This document shows positions 1,009 to 63,041 of a stretch of 64,000 nucleotides of DNA, piece by piece. Below the pieces are notes generated by a model. It did not search any database. It was not told the DNA's origin and saw only the letters and a list, made by a program, of their open reading frames with translations. The position numbers and the translations under genes were made by a program. The DNA comes from Fibrobacteria bacterium (GTDB lineage Bacteria > Fibrobacterota > Fibrobacteria > UBA11236 > JADFYW01): assembly GCA_015232855.1 (NCBI GenBank), contig JADFYW010000005.1, forward strand, positions 19,926-83,925, written 5' to 3'. Within the stretch, counting starts at the first letter, position 1. Each line of letters begins with the position of its first letter.

Positions 1009-1086
1009 GTCATTACCCGGCTTGACCGGGTAATCTATAAAATAATCGATTCTGGGATGGATCGCCCAGTCAAGCTGGGCGATGAC
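1009..1086. repeat. REP-like two-hairpin unit
   Basis: GTCATTACCCGG-CTTGA-CCGGGTAATC (1009-1035) is followed after 23 nt by the inverse-orientation hairpin GGATCGCCCAG-TCAAG-CTGGGCGATGAC (1059-1086). It is intergenic. The same unit occurs at 2741-2818. Confidence 0.85.
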
Positions 1087-2740: not shown

Positions 2741-2818
2741 GTCATTACCCGGCTTGACCGGGTAATCCATCAAATCGTCAATTACGGGATGGATTGCCCG
2801 GTCAAGCCGGGCAATGAC
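2741..2818. repeat. REP-like two-hairpin unit
   Basis: GTCATTACCCGGCTTGACCGGGTAATCC (2741-2768) plus GGATTGCCCGGTCAAGCCGGGCAATGAC (2791-2818). The track ORF 2558-2848 is merely its translation. Confidence 0.85.
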
Positions 2819-27916: not shown

Positions 27917-28033
27917 TGTCATACCTCTTTTTTATTATTTGTCATTGCCCGGTTAGGAAATTGTTTTACTAATTGATACAATATGCCAAATATCATTACC
28001 TGGCCTGTTAAGCTGAAAAAAACTTTCTGGACC

Positions 28034-28061
28034 TGTCATTACCCGGCTTGACCTGGTAATC
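28034..28061. repeat. REP-like hairpin, single copy, inside the operon
   Basis: GTCATTACCCGGCTTGACCTGGTAATCC lies between the Fe-S oxidoreductase and dehydrogenase genes. A truncated GTCATTGCCCGG is at 27941-27952. Confidence 0.8.
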
Positions 28062-28103
28062 CATCTCAGGATCGACGATTTGATGGCATTTTCGATAAAC
28101 ATC

Positions 28104-46994: not shown

Positions 46995-47822
46995 ATGAAT
47001 ACAACAGCAAAAATATCAGTTTTTTTCCTTATATTTCTTTTTATCGCTAATACCTCAGCTTTCAGACGGCAAAAAGAATATTGTAGTCTTCTCGCCAAAT
47101 GTGGTATTGAAATTCAAATAAAAGAATGTCCTGATTCAATGCGTGTTGGCATTAAAGGTATTGAATACACAGACTCCCGTTGTGCAGAGGCCCGCAGTCT
47201 GGAAGAAGTTGGTGTACTCTCCACCGATTACCAGGGACAAAAACTCTATGGTTTTCTGGGGCAAAAATATCGTGTTGATTATAAAGTAGAGAGCACCCTG
47301 CCGATTAAAACAAGCCGATTTGAATACTTGCTGCAGGATATTCCTCTCGCAGCAAAAGTGGTTAACGCATTTCAAAAAACAAAGTATACCGTGAGCTATC
47401 TTGATGGAGAGCGCAGACGATACTGGCGAGGCGATAACGGAGACAATCTCTCAGGTGAAGCCAACCTGATTGCAGGCAATATAAAGGAAAAACACCTGGT
47501 TTATTTTGGGTTCGGCATTGTTAAAATATTAAAATGGAAACTTAAAGGTCAGGTGCTTTTTGATTTCAAATATAAAGAAGAAAATAACCAGATTATCCCC
47601 TACGACCTGAAGGTTGTTGTCTTTCCAGGTGGTGCAATTGTCAATGCTATTATGAATATGGGGTTATTCAAACGAGTTGTAAAAAACAAAATTTTGGAAG
47701 TCTTCAAAGACATAACAGATTCTGCTGATGACCTTAGCAAGATGCCTTTTGACAAATTACTTCTGAAATACAAATGGACCGAAGAGGATGTGCAGAAGCT
47801 GAAAGTTCTACTTTCCCTCTAA
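46995..47822 (+). CDS. hypothetical secreted protein
   Basis: ATG 46995 gives MNTTAKISVFFLIFLFIANTSA. No family recognised. Confidence 0.45.
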   Translation: MNTTAKISVFFLIFLFIANTSAFRRQKEYCSLLAKCGIEIQIKECPDSMRVGIKGIEYTDSRCAEARSLEEVGVLSTDYQGQKLYGFLGQKYRVDYKVESTLPIKTSRFEYLLQDIPLAAKVVNAFQKTKYTVSYLDGERRRYWRGDNGDNLSGEANLIAGNIKEKHLVYFGFGIVKILKWKLKGQVLFDFKYKEENNQIIPYDLKVVVFPGGAIVNAIMNMGLFKRVVKNKILEVFKDITDSADDLSKMPFDKLLLKYKWTEEDVQKLKVLLSL

Positions 47823-47902
47823 CATCTGAGTCTTCTTAGAGCAAAAGTTTCAATTAAGCTGTTGCTAACACACTACTGAATTCAGCTTTATACCTCATCT
47901 GC

Positions 47903-48113
47903 TGGATTGCCCGGTCAACAGACTGTGTCATAAGTAAGAAAATGCTCCCCATGTACGTCATTGCCCGGCGTGACCGGGCAATCCAGTGAACGAAAGTGAG
48001 CAAAATAGAAGAAAATCGCCATTTCTTTTGGTGGATTCCCCGGTCAAGCCGTGGAATGACATCGTTGAATCATTTTTTCATACTTATGACACAGCCTGCA
48101 AGCCGGGCAATGA
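47903..48113. repeat. REP-like hairpin split by an insertion
   Basis: GGATTGCCCGGTCAA (47903-47917) and CAAGCCGGGCAATGAC (48098-48113) together reconstitute one REP hairpin, GGATTGCCCGG-TCAAG-CCGGGCAATGAC. Confidence 0.8.
47918..48097. mobile_element. 180-bp palindromic MITE-like element inserted in a REP loop
   Basis: Terminal inverted repeats CAGACTGTGTCATAAGTA / TACTTATGACACAGCCTG (17 of 18 match). Flanking CAA direct repeats at 47915-47917 and 48098-48100. Two internal REP hairpins at 47956-47983 and 48032-48059 in inverse orientation. No coding capacity. Confidence 0.65.
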
Positions 48114-48315
48114 CATGTTCATCGCATTAATAATTTTTATTACTTTAAAACAGGAATTGGTGAGCTGTCCAGTAAATTCATTCCAAGTTTTCTTTCACCA
48201 TTTCGAATAAAACTTTACTTTAAAGTAATTCCTTTCTTTAAACGCCTCCTCACTTACCACTTTCCGAAAAAGTAGTTGGTTTATAGTTTTTTTCTTGACA
48301 GTACGACATATGGTA

Positions 48316-48332
48316 TACCACAAGATGTGGTA
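48316..48332. promoter_or_regulatory. 17-bp perfect palindrome upstream of nrdD (candidate NrdR-type or other operator)
   Basis: TACCACA-AGA-TGTGGTA lies 16 nt downstream of a TTGACA hexamer (48295-48300) and about 146 nt upstream of the nrdD ATG. The adjacent ACACAATAAGTTGTTG (48332-48347) loosely resembles an NrdR box. Confidence 0.3.
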
Positions 48333-48477
48333 CACAATAAGTTGTTGCGTGTAAGCTTTCTTTAAACTATTTTCTTCCTGTTCAATTCTTATAAATAATG
48401 ATTTCTCTAATTTTCAATTTTAATGTTTCACAACGAGCCCAATTTTTATCAACCGTTTATTCATAAAGGTGATCTCC

Positions 48478-54620: not shown

Positions 54621-57600
54621 TCACTTTAACAATACCACTTGTTTTAAATATGTCTTTACATCTTCTGAATCACTTACGGTTAATTTAAGGACATAGCGTC
54701 CATTTCTGCATAATTTTCCATCGGTTGTTTTACCATCCCAAAGATAGAGCGATTGGTCGCCCAACCGTGTTTCCCGGGAAGCGCCTTCCTCCTGTTTTCG
54801 GGTACCCGCCACAACCGAATCTGATTTTGCAATCACATTTTTATTTGATTTAAAAACCAAGTCTCCACGCATATTATAAACTTCTATCTGTACCCCAATA
54901 AGGCTGGCTTTTCGTGAGCTAACCTCGTATTGCAATTGTAGTGCCCATGGGTCATTTGGCGTAAATGGATTGGGCATTACTTTTAATTGATATGCGCCCA
55001 GGGGACGACTTTCCATCTGAACAGCAAAAGGAGAAAATGTTGTCGCTAAAGCCGTGATAACCGAGTCAGAAGTCATATTTCCTTCTGTTTCCAACTTATC
55101 CCATTGTAAACGTTTTGAGTTCCAGTGACCAACAAAGATTTCCCCATTTCTTGCGCTCGCTTTAACAGGAAGTGATACATATGCCCCACGACTTCTTTTA
55201 AAAGGCTGAGGAGGCGTAAGTTCTATATTAATAATATCGCCAGCGAGTTCAGTTGAAGGAGACACAACGAGTATATCTGATACCTCAGGTTGAGTAAAAT
55301 CTATCCTAACAGCTGATTCAAGCCCATCAAGTGGTATTGCTAAACCAGCCCCCTTACCATTCTGTACCGTTACAGTACTGGAATCACCTGGTTCAACTTG
55401 CAAATAGGTTTTGAGAGGTACCCGAAAACTTAATTCACTCACCGGGTCTCTAATAATTAAGGTATCTGCCCCTGCTACTTCATTATTTGGATAAAAGATC
55501 CCCTGACTAAATTCATCATTAAATGCTGTATCCAAAACAGCTGAATCAGTAAGTGACCATTCAGGAGAAATAATAAACGAAACGTCATCTTTGGTGTACC
55601 CAACAGCGCTGAACTGATACCCTTTAGATGTCCGATTTCGTAGTTCTATTACAGATCCTTCGGTCAATAACATATTTTCGTCTTCAAAGCGCAAAGCTAT
55701 TTTTTCAGCTTCAATATCTTTTACTACCACGCTGATTTCTTTCTGCACCGTGTTTTTATCAACCTTTACCGTACAATACACATGAAAGTTGCCAGGACCA
55801 CCAGCCAATAACGTAACCGTTCTCGGATTTTTGGAAGACTGCTGCAAGGTTGATCCATTACTTTCCAAAGTCACCTTTTCTGACTCGAACGACCAGGTAA
55901 TAGAAATGTCTTCATTTTTTTCAACATTCCTATCAAAATAAACATTTAAATCTCTGCCATTATCGCCAAACAAATTAACATTTGCAATCATTCGTCCTTC
56001 TTTGGCCATAAGGACAGAATCAGCTTCAAGGCTGGCAGGAGCAAAACTGATAGCTTTTAGCACATTTGGATCAAAGACTTTAAACGAACGAGGTGCATTT
56101 GCATTGGTATAAACAGCTAGCTCAGAACTATTATTACTTGATATGATTGCATCCTTTTGTGTTACGCGATAATAATATTGAACTTCTCCTGGTTTTAAGA
56201 AAGCCGGCATTGTAGCAGAATAAGTATAGATACCCTGACTGGATATTACGTCCATACTAAGAGAATCATAAACCGATGCGTCACTGTATTTGTAATACCA
56301 TTTAGCAACAATATTGTTTTTAATTTTATCAACAGAAACACTCTTTTCGATTTCCAACAAGCCACTAAAAGGTTCCCCCATTATCGTATCCTGAAGTTGG
56401 ACTATTCTCCAGGGAAAGGGTATTTGGTCAATCCGTATTTCATCCGTATTTAACGATATTGTATAAGGGAGTAACGGTAACCGTGTTTTTTCCAAGACGG
56501 ATACTGCGATTTCATAATTTCCTTTTTGCATATCAGCAGGGGATTGATATAATCCCGCGATAGCAGTGTCAGCAAACATTTTTAGTTCACCCACATAGAC
56601 TTCTGCCGCAATCGGTGCCGTTCCATCTGAAGTTATTTTCGCTTTGAATTGAGAAGAAGGATAAAACAAGGAATCACTTACTTCTGGAATAGCTGCAGAA
56701 AGTTGAAAAAATGCCTTTAAATCATCATATCCATCCCTCTGTATACTCACACTATAATTATTAGGTATACGGAGCCCGCTGAATAACACGGGGTTATCTT
56801 TTTTAGAAACCACTTCATCCTCTGAAAAATCTGAAACAAGCCGCATTTCAATATTTTCAACGGGTTTTCCTTTTTCAACAACCGTTAATCTTATTTTTCC
56901 ATCAAAGGAAAAAACGGGAACAAGCCTCAGTACCTGAGTACCTGAGCCATAGGTGTCCAATATCACTTTCTGATTCGATAAGGATTCGTAGCCTGCTGCA
57001 GTTATTGAATCAACATTCACAAATGCCCCGGGGGTTGTAGAAAAATCCGCGATATAGACTCCATTACTGTCACTTTCAACGGTATCCACCAATCCTGATT
57101 CTGTGGTAATAAATAATTTTGCATTGACGATATTCAGTTTTTCATTAATCGCACTTACCACAATACCGCTTAAACGATTCCGAATGCGCGAGAGTTTGAA
57201 ATTAACTTCCTGAAACTCTTCTCCAGAAAAAACAAGTGTATCCGTAAACTGCGTAAAGGCCAAATGATTTATATGAATAACATAAGTTCCCGCTTCTATG
57301 CCTTTTAAAAGGTACTGACCAGCAACATCCGACTTCAGTGTTAAAAAATCGTCTCCTTTAATAAAAACCATATCTACTTCTACGCCAGTTCCCGCTTCAT
57401 CAAGAACTATCCCAAACAATCCCGTTTCTTTTGGAGAAAGATTAAAATCAGCTACACCCTCAACTTGATTATTTGTGATTTTTATATGCACATCACCGGT
57501 TAGATTGATAAACCCCTCTTTTTCAGCTTGCACGAGATAGACTCCGTTTCTCAACCCACTAACGACAAAACGCCCTAAACTATCTGTTATTGCCTGGGTA

Positions 57601-60600
57601 ATATTTCCATCAATCTTATTTATTATTGAAATCGAAACTCCAGGAATATGCTGACCATCAGACATAGCACTACCACTTACATCAGCAAGTTTTATGAGTT
57701 TAAGTAATGTAGAAACAGTCTGGTTAAGAGGTAATACAAATGTCGTATCAAAAGAACTCAGTTTCTCTGTCAATGCCTTTATGGTATATGCCGTCTGACT
57801 TTCCAGATTTAAAAAAGCAAAATCTCCAGAGGCATTACAGGAGGTCTGTTCTCTGCTTCCAGATGTATTCAACAAAGAAACCGTCGTGCTTGTAAAATCT
57901 ACCGTTGAATCAGACACGACTCTACCTGATACCGATTGGGTGTAGGCTGTAAGTGTTATATTTTTTTCAAAAGCCTCGTTACCGATTGTTACATATTCAG
58001 CATAATCTTTATATCCTGGCAAAGTAACTTTTAGTAAATATTCTTTTGGCACATCAACACTAAAAAAATAAGTAGCGTCGTCCCTTGTTAACACGGTATC
58101 TTCTACTTTTGTATTGGTATCTTGTAATACAAGTTTAATATTATTACGGCCCTGGTTATTTTTTTGGTTCCTTGACTCATAAACTTTGCCATATACACCT
58201 GCAGATAATTCTTTTAATTCAAATTCTATTGTTTCTTGAGCAGAAAAAGTACCATCAAGATATACTGACCTGCTTACCGTCTCTGAAAAATAATTATTCT
58301 TGGCAACAGATATTTTATAATTAGCGGCAGCCAGCCCTTTTAATACAAAAGATTGCCCCTTTGCATTTTCATAAAATTCACCGTTAATATATATTGAAAA
58401 ATCTGCAACATTAGTATTTATAGTTACCATTGAATTATGCTCATTTATTAATGTGGTGAAAGATTCATCTTCAACACCAGTAATGGTAATGGTCTTAGTC
58501 ACATTATCAAATCCAACAGGGTCCAGAAGGGTTTTCACCGTTAATACGGTCCCAGGTAAGAGGTCATCTAATCCAAACGTGCCACTACCAGACGTGGTAA
58601 CAGTGTCTTTTGTATTTGAATTGATTATCAAGACTTTGGAATTATCGAGTTTCCTGGAATTGGTCAATAAAATATCTGAATAAGAGACCCTGCTCCTTTT
58701 TAGGGCAAAATTAAAACCTGTTGTACTCTCACCAGCTTTAAGCTCTATTTCTTTGCTAACCGGAACAACACCCGCAACAGCTACCGTCACTTTTAGCAAC
58801 GACCCTTTTTCCGCCCTAAGATTGTTTATCCGGTAACTTCCGTCTGTCCCCGGATAACCAGAGCGTGAGGGGTTACCTGCGCCTGAAATCTGTATTCTTG
58901 CATCAGCAGATTTTTCTCCATCCAGAGTAATTTCACCGGAAATACTGGAAGAAAAATCTTCTGCAAGTATATTAAGACTTGTAGATTTTATGATGGTAAT
59001 ATTTTGTTCCACACACTTATATCGAGGAGAAATACAACCGATGCGGTATTGAACACCTACCGGTAAATCTGATATCGTAAACCCACCGTTTGTATTGGTA
59101 GCAGTCTGTATTTCTTCAAAACTGCCACTAAAGGGTATCAATTTCATAGACAAGGCCTTAACCGTAACACCGTCTTGATTTTTAACTATACCATTTACCG
59201 TTCCCTTTTGCTGTTCCACATTTACCCTAAAACTGTGCTTTCCCGAAACCGTTAATACAGAAGACGAAGTAATTGCATATCCCGAATTTGTAATGGTAAG
59301 TTCATAATTGCCCAAAGGAAGTGCAAATTCGAAAGGACTTGCCTCCAACGAAGGATATTCATCCCTTGTATTTTCATTTACCAGATTAAATCTTAAGTGA
59401 GATACATTTACTACTCCTTCTGGTATTAAAGTCACTTCACCAGAAAAAGGAGTTAATTCAAAATTTATCCCTGATAATATTCCACCTTCTATGAGACTTT
59501 TGCCAGAATAAATCTGATCTACTGCATGTTTATCTAAATATACCTTAATCATATATTCACCAGCAGGAAGAGAATCAAAAGAGAATATACCATCTGATGC
59601 GCTAAACGCAGATCGGCTTAACGCCCCAGATTGCACAAATATCTGGACATTTCCAAGTACATCACCATTTGACAAACGGCAATTACCGGAAATTTTTCCC
59701 GTCCAGGGTATTAATTCCAAATCTGCTTTCGAAATTAAATTAGCTGAAATAAAAACATTTTGCTTAGCTTCGTAATAATTATGAGCTGAAGTGGTTAAGG
59801 AATAAAATCCCGCTGCCAATCCATCCAAACGAAAGCGCCCCTGAGCATCAGTTTTTATCATAGGGACTGAAACTCCAATTCTGGATAAAATGATATTGGT
59901 ACCAACTACCGGTTGAGAGGCATTATTCAACACCAATCCAGAAATACCACCCTCATCAATCAGCAAAGTGTCTTTGGCTCCTGAAATTGAAGTACCTACA
60001 TTAAGGGTAATGTTTTTTTCTTTATTAAGATATCCTACTTTCTGCATCGCTAATAAATAATTGCCAGCTACGAGATTAAATCGATATAGCCCTTTTGAAT
60101 CAGAAATGAGAGACTGTGATTCACCGCTATTTTTATCAGTAATGGTAAGACTTACATCCGAAAGCCCACTTCCTGTCTTTGAAGAATAAACCGTGCATGA
60201 ATAGGATATATCCGAAGGATATAACGTTATCCGGGCAAATTGAGTTTCATCCGCAGAAAGTGTATATACGGTTTCGGAAGATGGGATATAATCGACACAT
60301 TCCGCTTTAACACTATAGGCTTTATTTGCACCTATTTCAAATTGAAATTCACCTGCACTTGAAACCGGAGCGGTATTCACTCCGTCAATGCTGGTATATA
60401 TTACCTGACAGTTTTTATTTAAAAGAGGAGATCCCAAAGCATACAACGCTCCGGATATTATACCGGTATTTTTAGTAAGACGAATATCTTTACCTGAATA
60501 TTGAACACCAGGATTTAATCTTAAATTTGTTAAAGTATCAGACAAATAGCCGTCTTTTTTTCCAAAAACAGTATACTCACCGGAAAATAAAGAAATATTA

Positions 60601-63041
60601 AAACGCCCCTGATTATCAGACAAAATCGAGGTAACTTTACCGGTTGTCAATTCTCTGGCATAGACTGTAATAGAAGGTGCTGGCCCGTTTTTCGTATAAA
60701 CAATTCCCCCGATTCTTGCCGCGTTGCCAACACCGGTAAAATTAATATTATACAGAGTATCGTTGCTTCCAATATTCAATTGAGGCGTTTCGGAAAAAGA
60801 ATATCCGGCTAAAAACGCGGTTAAAGTATTGGTACCTTTTTCTACTGATAGTTTATACTTTCCAAGTGCATCAGTAACAACATAATCTCCTGTTTCTACC
60901 ACACGTACCGTCACATTTGAAAGCTTTTGGATACCGGTTGCTGTTTTTTCAGAGACCTGGCCGTTAATAAACGAGGCGTTTTTCTTAACAAGGAAATCAG
61001 CATAAATATCCTGTCCATATTCCAACAACACATTATGTTTGCTCAGAGAAGAGTACCCTTTTTTTATAGCAGTTAGTACCCAGTTCCCGGCAGGTAAACT
61101 CATTAAATAAGCACCGTTTCTATCGGTTGGTTGTAAAATTTCTCTGCTGTCTGAGATAGCTTTTACAATAACATCAGGCTGATATTTCCCATCAGTATCT
61201 TCAACCGTTCCCGATACGGTAGAAGCTCCTGGTTCGAGAGACAATGATTTTTTAATATCAGATATTATTTCGAGGAACATTGTCTTACTTGAAAACCCTG
61301 CTTTTTCAAAAACAAGTTCAATCTGGCCAGATTGTGCATTAAAGGAAAAAGAGCCATCGCCCAGTGTTTGAAAAAATCTATTACTACCATCTTGTTTTGC
61401 TGTTACCGATACATCATAAATATTATCACCAGTATAACTGTTTGAAACATTTCCACTTACTCTATAAGTGAGACTTTTCATAGCAAAATCAATTTTTCCG
61501 ACCTTATTGTCATTACTTACGGTTGCGATACCGGGCTCAGGAGTAGCATATTCCTGGTGCTTGACAGATACTCTCCAGGAACCAAATGGCACTTCAAAAT
61601 TAAAATCTCCTGTGTAACTTGAAAGCTGGTGTTTAGGATCCATATCAGGTTCATTCACACTTGAAATAGATACGAGAGCATTTGTGATGGCACTTCCAGA
61701 GCCTTGTGCTATCACGGTACCATAAACCTTTCCTAGTGTGGGTGATAAAATCATTTTTTGGTCAAAGCTTCCTTTCAGTTCAAACTGAATTGTCTTTGGT
61801 TCAAAACCATCTTTTTCAGCCTTTATTGAATAATTACGAAAAGGCATATGTTCAAACCTGATAAACCCTTGCTCATCAGTTGGGCCTTCTGCTATAAAAG
61901 GATGTCGTAAACCCGGAACACGATCAAAGGATATTTTCGCATAGGGAACAGGTTTTTCGTTATTATCAAATACCCGTATTACGATGGAATTCGCATCAAC
62001 ACTATTATAAAAAGAAAAGGATTCAGAAGCATTCGCCCTGCCTTTGGCATCATACGCATAAACACGCCATGAATAAGGCAACTCGCGTAGTAACCCATTT
62101 GGGTCGTCCAACACCGCTTCGGGATTATTGACATACTTTTGAAGAATAGGAGATGTTGCCTCATTATCAGAAATCACATTTTCTTCAAATAAATCGATTC
62201 GGTAATTTACAGCACCGTTTACTGCAGACCACCTGAAAACAAGCGGCGCATTTGATGTTAAAGTATCATTATTTGGAGGTATGGATAGAACAGGCTTTGG
62301 TGGTACATCCGCTTCATAAGTAAAACTCATCGGAGTAGAAATAACTGTTGAAATAATATTTGCAGAAGGATCGTAATTGTTTAATACCAGCCAGTTGTAG
62401 GTTTTCCCTGACATTAATGGTGGTGGTTTAACACTGCTTCCAAAGTCGGATTTTTCTCCATACCTAATACTTTTGTTTCTGGTGGTTGCCTGCCAGATTG
62501 CATTAAGGTTCTGCAACTTTTCATCTTTGATAAAAAACGGTTGGTCCGAAATTAAAACGGTATAGTAAGGCGCATTACCGGTCCATTTGAATTCAGGAGT
62601 TAAATCACTTAGTTTTGTTTCATTTACTGGGCTTACGAGATCAGGCGCCTTGCTAGATTCCATAACTATTTGAAATTCAGCCGACTTCTTACTTCCACTG
62701 ATGAGAATACAATAATTTATTCCTATTTTCAGATCGGTTTCAAGGTATTCCGATTCAACTTCATTGGCATAAATAAATACTTTTGTTCCAGAAGCTGGCC
62801 ATGGAGGGATATGTACCAGATTGTAATGTTCAATATCAACACCTCCTCCGGGTATTGATGAACTTTTAAGTTGTACGTCTCCACTCCCTCCGGTATATCC
62901 AACTTTTATCGAATCTTTTTGACGATAGAGCCCTAATGGCAATTGGGTCAAAACAATATCCTGAGCAAAGCAATAACTAGACATTAGTACAGTTACAGTA
63001 AGTAGGTATAAGGTTCGGTGTAACAGCATTAATTTCCTCAT
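54621..63041 (-). CDS. 2806-aa secreted surface protein: N-terminal FN3-like modules, more than 15 carboxypeptidase-regulatory-like (CarboxypepD_reg/Cna-B-type) beta-sandwich repeats, FlgD-Ig/T9SS-type C-terminal domain
   Basis: Signal MRKLMLLHRTLYLLTVTVLMSSYCFAQ. Repeats of the type GTVEDTDGKYQPDVIVKAIS...TDRNGAYLMSLPAGNWVLTAIKKGYSS. C-terminal domain MPNPFTPNDPW...IEVYNMRGDLVF...LWDGKTTDGKLCRNGRYVLKLTV. Confidence 0.85.
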   Translation of the reverse strand: MRKLMLLHRTLYLLTVTVLMSSYCFAQDIVLTQLPLGLYRQKDSIKVGYTGGSGDVQLKSSSIPGGGVDIEHYNLVHIPPWPASGTKVFIYANEVESEYLETDLKIGINYCILISGSKKSAEFQIVMESSKAPDLVSPVNETKLSDLTPEFKWTGNAPYYTVLISDQPFFIKDEKLQNLNAIWQATTRNKSIRYGEKSDFGSSVKPPPLMSGKTYNWLVLNNYDPSANIISTVISTPMSFTYEADVPPKPVLSIPPNNDTLTSNAPLVFRWSAVNGAVNYRIDLFEENVISDNEATSPILQKYVNNPEAVLDDPNGLLRELPYSWRVYAYDAKGRANASESFSFYNSVDANSIVIRVFDNNEKPVPYAKISFDRVPGLRHPFIAEGPTDEQGFIRFEHMPFRNYSIKAEKDGFEPKTIQFELKGSFDQKMILSPTLGKVYGTVIAQGSGSAITNALVSISSVNEPDMDPKHQLSSYTGDFNFEVPFGSWRVSVKHQEYATPEPGIATVSNDNKVGKIDFAMKSLTYRVSGNVSNSYTGDNIYDVSVTAKQDGSNRFFQTLGDGSFSFNAQSGQIELVFEKAGFSSKTMFLEIISDIKKSLSLEPGASTVSGTVEDTDGKYQPDVIVKAISDSREILQPTDRNGAYLMSLPAGNWVLTAIKKGYSSLSKHNVLLEYGQDIYADFLVKKNASFINGQVSEKTATGIQKLSNVTVRVVETGDYVVTDALGKYKLSVEKGTNTLTAFLAGYSFSETPQLNIGSNDTLYNINFTGVGNAARIGGIVYTKNGPAPSITVYARELTTGKVTSILSDNQGRFNISLFSGEYTVFGKKDGYLSDTLTNLRLNPGVQYSGKDIRLTKNTGIISGALYALGSPLLNKNCQVIYTSIDGVNTAPVSSAGEFQFEIGANKAYSVKAECVDYIPSSETVYTLSADETQFARITLYPSDISYSCTVYSSKTGSGLSDVSLTITDKNSGESQSLISDSKGLYRFNLVAGNYLLAMQKVGYLNKEKNITLNVGTSISGAKDTLLIDEGGISGLVLNNASQPVVGTNIILSRIGVSVPMIKTDAQGRFRLDGLAAGFYSLTTSAHNYYEAKQNVFISANLISKADLELIPWTGKISGNCRLSNGDVLGNVQIFVQSGALSRSAFSASDGIFSFDSLPAGEYMIKVYLDKHAVDQIYSGKSLIEGGILSGINFELTPFSGEVTLIPEGVVNVSHLRFNLVNENTRDEYPSLEASPFEFALPLGNYELTITNSGYAITSSSVLTVSGKHSFRVNVEQQKGTVNGIVKNQDGVTVKALSMKLIPFSGSFEEIQTATNTNGGFTISDLPVGVQYRIGCISPRYKCVEQNITIIKSTSLNILAEDFSSSISGEITLDGEKSADARIQISGAGNPSRSGYPGTDGSYRINNLRAEKGSLLKVTVAVAGVVPVSKEIELKAGESTTGFNFALKRSRVSYSDILLTNSRKLDNSKVLIINSNTKDTVTTSGSGTFGLDDLLPGTVLTVKTLLDPVGFDNVTKTITITGVEDESFTTLINEHNSMVTINTNVADFSIYINGEFYENAKGQSFVLKGLAAANYKISVAKNNYFSETVSRSVYLDGTFSAQETIEFELKELSAGVYGKVYESRNQKNNQGRNNIKLVLQDTNTKVEDTVLTRDDATYFFSVDVPKEYLLKVTLPGYKDYAEYVTIGNEAFEKNITLTAYTQSVSGRVVSDSTVDFTSTTVSLLNTSGSREQTSCNASGDFAFLNLESQTAYTIKALTEKLSSFDTTFVLPLNQTVSTLLKLIKLADVSGSAMSDGQHIPGVSISIINKIDGNITQAITDSLGRFVVSGLRNGVYLVQAEKEGFINLTGDVHIKITNNQVEGVADFNLSPKETGLFGIVLDEAGTGVEVDMVFIKGDDFLTLKSDVAGQYLLKGIEAGTYVIHINHLAFTQFTDTLVFSGEEFQEVNFKLSRIRNRLSGIVVSAINEKLNIVNAKLFITTESGLVDTVESDSNGVYIADFSTTPGAFVNVDSITAAGYESLSNQKVILDTYGSGTQVLRLVPVFSFDGKIRLTVVEKGKPVENIEMRLVSDFSEDEVVSKKDNPVLFSGLRIPNNYSVSIQRDGYDDLKAFFQLSAAIPEVSDSLFYPSSQFKAKITSDGTAPIAAEVYVGELKMFADTAIAGLYQSPADMQKGNYEIAVSVLEKTRLPLLPYTISLNTDEIRIDQIPFPWRIVQLQDTIMGEPFSGLLEIEKSVSVDKIKNNIVAKWYYKYSDASVYDSLSMDVISSQGIYTYSATMPAFLKPGEVQYYYRVTQKDAIISSNNSSELAVYTNANAPRSFKVFDPNVLKAISFAPASLEADSVLMAKEGRMIANVNLFGDNGRDLNVYFDRNVEKNEDISITWSFESEKVTLESNGSTLQQSSKNPRTVTLLAGGPGNFHVYCTVKVDKNTVQKEISVVVKDIEAEKIALRFEDENMLLTEGSVIELRNRTSKGYQFSAVGYTKDDVSFIISPEWSLTDSAVLDTAFNDEFSQGIFYPNNEVAGADTLIIRDPVSELSFRVPLKTYLQVEPGDSSTVTVQNGKGAGLAIPLDGLESAVRIDFTQPEVSDILVVSPSTELAGDIINIELTPPQPFKRSRGAYVSLPVKASARNGEIFVGHWNSKRLQWDKLETEGNMTSDSVITALATTFSPFAVQMESRPLGAYQLKVMPNPFTPNDPWALQLQYEVSSRKASLIGVQIEVYNMRGDLVFKSNKNVIAKSDSVVAGTRKQEEGASRETRLGDQSLYLWDGKTTDGKLCRNGRYVLKLTVSDSEDVKTYLKQVVLLK

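Follow-up and report, generated by a model that had tools for sequence, protein, structure and literature searches.

We identified a REP hairpin in a 40% GC Fibrobacteria MAG that is divided within its loop by a 180-bp insert whose terminal inverted repeats (TIRs) are homologous to the ends of elements encoding IS1182 transposases. The explanation that we consider likely is that a transposase-less IS1182 derivative integrated in trans at the apex of the REP hairpin with a 3-nt stagger. Throughout, the window denotes the whole 64-kb stretch of DNA that was analyzed, and the coordinates of its features are collected in Table 1. The initial annotation of this DNA had described a nested event, a MITE-like element sitting in a REP loop and flanked by duplicated CAA, and this description is upheld by both a paralogous empty site and real IS ends; the features it listed are all present, with each coordinate placed one position too low.

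Table 1. Features of the split REP hairpin, its insert and related REP copies; coordinates refer to the window unless a contig is named.
Feature	Coordinates	Strand	Remarks
Inverted REP doublet, intact	1009..1086		Intact copies at 1009-1036 and 1059-1086
Inverted REP doublet	2741..2818		Intact copies at 2741-2768 and 2791-2818
Intact REP that the reconstructed target matches exactly (paralogous "empty site")	2791..2818	+	Lies in doublet 2741-2818
Further REP	28035..28062	-	Intact copy, 3 mismatches
Split REP, 5' half GGATTGCCCGGTCAA	47904..47918	+	Stem GGATTGCCCGG plus loop TCAA; equals 2791-2805 of the intact REP
Target-site duplication (TSD) copy 1, CAA	47916..47918		Intact loop is TCAAG, so exactly 3 bases are extra
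Putative non-autonomous IS1182-family derivative, MITE-like, without transposase gene	47919..48098		180 bp
Left terminal inverted repeat CAGACTGTGTCATAAGTAAGAAAATG	47919..47944	+	18-nt core 47919-47936 = CAGACTGTGTCATAAGTA; 18/18 to L127 left end
Internal REP 1 GTCATTGCCCGGCGTGACCGGGCAATCC	47957..47984	-	Intact copy, first half of inverted doublet; 1 mismatch to consensus
Spacer of internal REP doublet	47985..48032		48 bp; no second copy within the window
Internal REP 2 GGATTCCCCGGTCAAGCCGTGGAATGAC	48033..48060	+	Intact copy; 3 mismatches to consensus
Right terminal inverted repeat, reverse complement CAGGCTGTGTCATAAGTATGAAAAAATG	48071..48098	-	18-nt core 48081-48098
Split REP, 3' half CAAGCCGGGCAATGAC	48099..48114	+	Loop CAAG plus stem CCGGGCAATGAC
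Target-site duplication copy 2, CAA	48099..48101		
REP copies 28/28 identical to window 2791-2818	L146 5281-5308; L148 4531-4558; L149 2695-2722		

The two halves of the split hairpin can be reassembled without loss. When the flanks are joined minus one CAA they read GGATTGCCCGGTCAAGCCGGGCAATGAC, which is a 28/28-nt match to the intact copy at 2791-2818. The first and last 15 nt of the 210-bp unit, the latter being 48099-48113, are identical by blastn-short to positions 2791-2805 and 2803-2817 of that REP, overlapping by CAA. Excising 183 bp restores the outer REP exactly. Beyond its stem this REP is asymmetric (GGATT... / ...AATGAC), and the loop sequence TCAAG is non-palindromic; because an asymmetric REP is restored exactly and the 3-nt repeat is direct, the arrangement points to transposition with a 3-bp staggered cut, not to growth of a palindrome. 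Both the halving of the hairpin by a 180-bp insert and the CAA direct repeat on its two sides had been proposed before, and both are confirmed by this reconstruction. Folding of the entire 236-nt region gives a single long hairpin (-54.2 kcal/mol versus -27.6 +/- 3.2 for shuffled sequences, z = -8.4).

The hairpin belongs to a genuine REP repeat family in the window. A mismatch-tolerant search recovered seven intact copies (Table 1), which together with the split one make eight in 64 kb, all between long ORFs; the five copies outside the insert are intergenic, and the insert that holds the other two is itself intergenic. Stem changes are compensatory (GGATTACCCGG/CCGGGTAATGAC and GGATCGCCCAG/CTGGGCGATGAC), and the free doublets are of the BIME/REPIN type with spacers of ~22 bp, compared with 48 bp for the doublet inside the insert. 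The copies are thus short imperfect palindromes that are repeated, intergenic, compensated in their stems and arranged in inverted doublets, as in REP and REPIN families. Target and cargo of the insertion are both 28-nt imperfect palindromes, a likeness to known REP, BIME and REPIN systems (PMC2817692, PMC3333891, PMC3116915), but unlike in those systems no gene for a RAYT (REP-associated tyrosine transposase, a Y1 HUH enzyme; Y1_Tnp) was seen, as neither this nor any transposase was matched in 29 of the 38 long ORFs of the 64 kb (Pfam, NCBIfam). A full-text search of the literature for the REP sequence string found nothing.

Two further places in the window bear on this family. The ORF at 1166-2440 (424 aa) has no Pfam or NCBIfam match even under lenient settings and has the REP doublets 1009-1086 and 2741-2818 on either side, a layout that recalls REPtrons, with a protein that lacks the Y1 transposase signature. 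At 27941-28062 a REP 5' arm (GTCATTGCCCGG) stops abruptly and gives way to unrelated AT-rich DNA, after which come a degenerate REP-like stretch (27986-28006) and the full REP at 28035-62; the arm may have been cut short by an old event, either an insertion or a deletion.

The exact 28-nt REP GGATTGCCCGGTCAAGCCGGGCAATGAC is also present in three IMG/VR contigs of 64-65% GC (L146, L148 and L149), and the identity rises to 30/30 when the CT before the split copy (47902-47903) is included. The best plasmid matches of these three contigs are Hyphomicrobiales (Shinella, Methylobacterium and Chelatococcus), and L148 and L149 hold further variants of the frame, such as GGATCACCGGGACAAGCCCGGTGATGAC. 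A REP frame common to Alphaproteobacteria and a Fibrobacteria MAG suggests that a REP/RAYT system may have spread horizontally, for which there is a precedent in Thauera (PMC2817692).

The insert is bounded by 18-nt ends that are inverted and 17/18 identical, with two matches in 64 kb compared with 0.01 expected from shuffles, and the inverted symmetry reaches 26 nt on the left and 28 nt on the right. Each 38-bp end directly abuts the REP doublet, so that the element is almost perfectly symmetric. Here the initial annotation was accurate in reporting 18-bp inverted repeats with one mismatch and symmetry extending beyond them, as well as two REP hairpins in mirror orientation inside the insert. 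No transposase ORF was found in the 180 bp, from which DUF772 and DDE_Tnp_1/DDE_Tnp_1_6 are absent, and a tblastn search with the transposase of L127 (see below) detected no IS1182 transposase in the 64-kb window; with no transposase in either the insert or the window, we consider the insert non-autonomous. The earlier statement that it has no ORF of its own therefore stands for a transposase, but a mechanical 74-aa GTG ORF (47986-48210) does start within the insert and exits it. Sub-threshold Rfam matches at 47939-48080 (WsnRNA46 at 25.6 bits, gathering threshold 65; MIR1861 at 27, threshold 88; E = 0.006-0.03) most likely reflect the long palindrome rather than an RNA gene.

The identity of the ends comes from a scan of the JGI metagenomes with the 19-nt core of the ends, which gave four matches, three of which represent a single conserved gene with no relation to the element. 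The remaining match (L127, Ga0123353_10336990) reads CAGACTGTGTCATAAGTATGAAAAAA and matches the insert over 18/18 nt of its left end and 25 of the first 26 nt of its right end. It sits 69 bp 5' of the ATG that starts a transposase ORF, which is cut off by the contig edge and contains the domains DUF772 and DDE_Tnp_1; the fragment, being truncated, scores 248 bits on NF033551 (NCBIfam IS1182), whose curated cutoff is 270 bits. L127 is the sole relative with the exact CATAAGTA variant, and its truncated contig provides the left end only.

Homologues of the L127 transposase number in the thousands, and several are named IS1182-family transposase by NCBI. We fetched contigs for seven of these homologues (L129-L131, L132-L136, L137-L139, L140-L141 and L142), whose transposases are 65-80% identical to that of L127. 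Two of them, P0137 (L129) and P0121 (L131), pass NF033551 with 322 and 324 bits, and the other five have the same precomputed DUF772/DDE_Tnp_1/DDE_Tnp_1_6 domains. The seven full-length elements measure 1636-1682 bp, with CAGACTGTGTCA at the start and its complement at the end, and their left ends lie ~70-80 bp ahead of the ATG. The terminal 12 nt of the insert (CAGACTGTGTCA) are matched 12/12 in 11 of the 14 IS ends and 10-11/12 in the rest. The insert retains ~26-38 bp of each IS end and nothing of the IS interior, and among the window and the fetched loci it is the sole short CAGACTGTGTCA...TGACACAGYCTG pair. We also considered the REP stems as part of the element's own terminal inverted repeats and rejected this, the ISs of the relatives being without REP at their ends.

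The autonomous relatives were seen in other metagenomes and a Treponema genome, and none lies in the 64-kb window. The closest transposase-bearing relatives are uncultured, coming from metagenome contigs and a Treponema assembly, and are ~41% identical to plasmid-borne IS1182/ISPa7 transposases. A parent IS1182 element would bear CAGRCTGTGTCATAAGTA ends. One fetched contig (L131 1-1811, JGI Ga0123354_10248148) has a 112-bp terminal redundancy that indicates an IS1182 unit of 1699 bp, either circular or in tandem, in which the right and left ends are bridged by a 36-bp segment with a hairpin (CAACGCACCCTCGCCGGATTCATAAAGGGTGCGAAG). A similar hairpin is found directly 5' of the L142 left end; such hairpins could stem from a circle junction or be a conserved feature that lies beyond the ends.

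IS1397 and ISKpn1 insert into the REP loop with a duplication of 3-4 bp, and elements of the IS3 family have ends of the form TG...CA and a transposase made of two ORFs joined by frameshift. The insert resembles IS1397 and ISKpn1 in having a REP as its target, but its ends read CAG...CTG and match single-ORF DUF772/DDE_Tnp_1 elements, so the IS1397 type named by the initial annotation has to be replaced by IS1182 as the relevant family. Given that the insert has the ends of the IS1182 clade and none of the interior, it appears to be a non-autonomous, MITE-like derivative of IS1182 rather than a relative of IS1397 (IS3). PMC1525189 and PMC3333891 cite IS1397 and ISKpn1 (IS3 family) as elements that insert into REPs, the palindromic units of BIMEs in enterobacteria. 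REPs have also been compiled as IS targets for members of IS3, IS110, IS4, IS256 and IS5 (Tobes and Pareja, PMC1525189), a list that does not name IS1182.

Bacterial MITEs are non-autonomous IS derivatives (PMC3184786), and the insert shares with them a small size (180 bp), terminal inverted repeats (17/18), a duplicated target (CAA/CAA), the lack of a transposase, which autonomous IS1182 members encode, and ends in common with an autonomous IS family. It differs from MITEs in that these are usually multicopy by definition, whereas one copy is known here, and in that its interior is a REP doublet. We searched for further copies in several collections. Within the 64-kb window, blastn-short found no second copy of the non-REP parts. 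The scan of 185,579 species genomes with CTGTGTCATAAGTANGAAAA, a 19-nt core, returned no copy, the window's own locus not being among these genomes, and three chance matches inside coding sequences; the 19-nt core scan of the JGI metagenomes gave no further copy of the 180-bp insert. Viral contigs yielded single chance matches in a 14-mer scan and three chance matches in unrelated contexts in a 17-mer scan for the TIR, and neither the REP-TIR junction pattern nor the A/T REP variant was found in them. Plasmids had no blastn match to the 211 bp and marginal matches only to a 30-nt REP query. Looking up the exact NrdG and NrdD of the window in the contig index gave no record. The search for relatives of the ends that had been recommended at the outset was in this way productive for a transposase-bearing relative (L127) and seven full-length ISs, but not for a second 180-bp copy; that the element is a MITE in the multicopy sense, and that a transposase was recently active in this genome, are points that we infer.

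To place the window site among those of its clade, the flanks of eight distinct insertion sites were joined, any visible TSD was removed, and the resulting sequences were folded and compared with random positions in the same sequences. The insertion point coincides with a hairpin apex at 4/8 sites, the window site included (p <= 0.025 each), which is far above chance. The window site has a score of 9, reached by only 0.2% of random sites (p = 0.002), and L135 lies at the exact centre of a palindrome of >140 bp (p = 0.009), with a flank complementarity of 61 versus 7.6 +/- 1.6. The remaining two apex sites, each with p = 0.025, are L137, with the TSD GGGG, and L140, in which the IS is flanked by GCTGCTGTC and GACAGCGGC. 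Insertions in L132 (TSD CTAC) and L142 are within long hairpins, off the tip, and at L129 and L130 there is neither a hairpin at the insertion point nor a TSD. Because the relatives favour apexes of varied sequence, the transposase probably reads DNA structure, such as a hairpin or cruciform tip, rather than the REP sequence.

The L135 flanks have features of their own. The 90 nt on each side of the element (91-180 and 1857-1946) fold at -86.7 kcal/mol as a near-perfect palindrome, while L132, L133 and L136 have the left arm of L135 and a different, partly palindromic right flank that shows a CTAC duplication. Either a palindromic repeat that served as the target or an IS-mediated inversion could account for the palindromic flanks of L135.

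Integration into hairpins has been described for two elements of staphylococci, TnSha1 and IS1272 (IS1182 family; IS1272 has been studied best in this family), which always integrate there (PMC4923244, PMC5678879), and palindromic targets in the IS1182 family are credited by PMC4923244 to the 2015 review of Siguier. The clade of the insert is like IS1272 and TnSha1 in entering hairpin-forming DNA. It is unlike them at the window site, where both arms remain and a duplication of 3 bp is present, whereas IS1272 and TnSha1 produce no TSD and the hairpin is partly or wholly deleted or replaced.

The split REP starts 82 bp, and the insert 96 bp, past the upstream stop codon (ending at 47822), and nrdD (NrdD = MBF0430080.1) lies ~370 bp downstream of the insert, with its promoter-like region ~200 bp downstream. 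A promoter and terminator scan found no promoters above shuffle expectation and no terminators, and the insert probably has little effect on the upstream gene or nrdD. Upstream of nrdD, within 48296-48350, two short palindromes (CCACAAGATGTGG and CACAATAAGTTGTTG) that resemble NrdR boxes come after a promoter-like sequence of the TTGACA type, and one of these palindromes is partly kept in the distant locus L124 (CACAATAATTTGTTG). The orthologous spacer in L124 (NrdD 76% identical) is 398 bp long and contains neither the REP nor the insert; we rejected this locus as an empty site, its intergenic region being too diverged to align. Elsewhere in the window, a single ORF of 2,806 aa occupies 54621-63041 on the minus strand.

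In the mechanism that we favour, an IS1182-type DDE transposase supplied in trans would bind the 26-nt ends of the mini-element and capture the tip of a REP hairpin that is extruded or, for a short time, single-stranded, the choice of target being probably one of structure. The ends would then be joined 3 nt apart within the loop TCAAG, and repair would duplicate CAA and leave the stem arms intact. The REP doublet would have entered the element either by insertion into a 76-bp end-pair or by capture as the IS interior was lost. That the two ends are nearly identical, that the TSD is intact and that the REP arms carry no mutation suggests that the insertion event was recent.

The 210-bp palindrome might instead have arisen with no transposition at all, as a BIME-like REP cluster grown by hairpin-mediated duplication or inversion in which the TIRs are just part of the palindrome. 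The whole region is indeed one long imperfect palindrome, and REPs elsewhere in the window do form inverted doublets, but the non-REP ends match IS1182 termini over 18-26 nt, in L127 at the very position expected of an IS end, and the terminal 12-mer is found again at either end of seven ISs. Palindromic duplication would moreover not yield a direct CAA repeat, and removing 183 bp would not be expected to restore the asymmetric outer REP exactly, as it does; we regard growth of a REP cluster as effectively refuted. A more serious alternative is that a full-length IS1182 element once occupied the REP loop and lost its interior in situ, the doublet being filler or a later insertion and the insert a dead relic. 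This would account for the single copy found across the window, species genomes, JGI metagenomes and plasmids, for the lack of a transposase in the window and for an insert interior dissimilar to that of the ISs. We nevertheless judge it unlikely, since the ends are well kept, both mutually (17/18) and with respect to L127 (18/18 and 25/26), since the intact TSD and REP arms 100% identical to the intact paralogue point to a recent event, and since a doublet flush with 38-bp ends gives a symmetry more typical of a MITE than of random deletion. This relic and the integration in trans of a transposase-less derivative differ solely in copy number and mobility.

The order of events within the insert allows for one further scenario, in which the mobile unit was the REP doublet, moved by a RAYT into a 76-bp IS1182 end-pair already present in the loop, so that the structure would be a three-step nest. 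The internal doublet is head-to-head like the free doublets 1009-1086 and 2741-2818 and is bounded exactly by REP outer edges, and REP doublets (REPINs) have been reported to be mobile (PMC3116915). Its spacer, however, has roughly double the length seen in the free doublets, no Y1_Tnp match was obtained in the 29 window ORFs scanned, and the 76-bp precursor was not seen. We give this scenario a small but real chance; as a sub-scenario that concerns event order, it is compatible with integration of a transposase-less IS1182 derivative at the hairpin apex. We think it rather improbable that all of these elements combine into a larger system, namely a live chimeric repeat of IS1182 ends around a REP doublet that could be moved by both an IS1182 transposase that seeks hairpin apexes and a RAYT, in a clade with staggered-cut, hairpin-preserving integration and TSDs of 3-4 bp, unlike the TSD-less, hairpin-replacing IS1272, and with a REP system that passed between Alphaproteobacteria and this low-GC lineage, the identical 28-nt REP being common to both.

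Integration of a transposase-less IS1182 derivative at the tip of a REP hairpin would leave what the window contains, a clean natural snapshot in which an empty paralogue, a filled site and an intact TSD are preserved together, with a DDE transposon end-pair at the hairpin tip. Hairpin-targeted transposition was already known, and our results do not overturn the current understanding of it; what is new here is the assignment of the insert to the IS1182 family, which would add IS1182 to the IS families seen in REPs. [quoted passage not shown] It also shows REP-type repeats, together with the elements that parasitize them, in an uncultured lineage that has been little studied.
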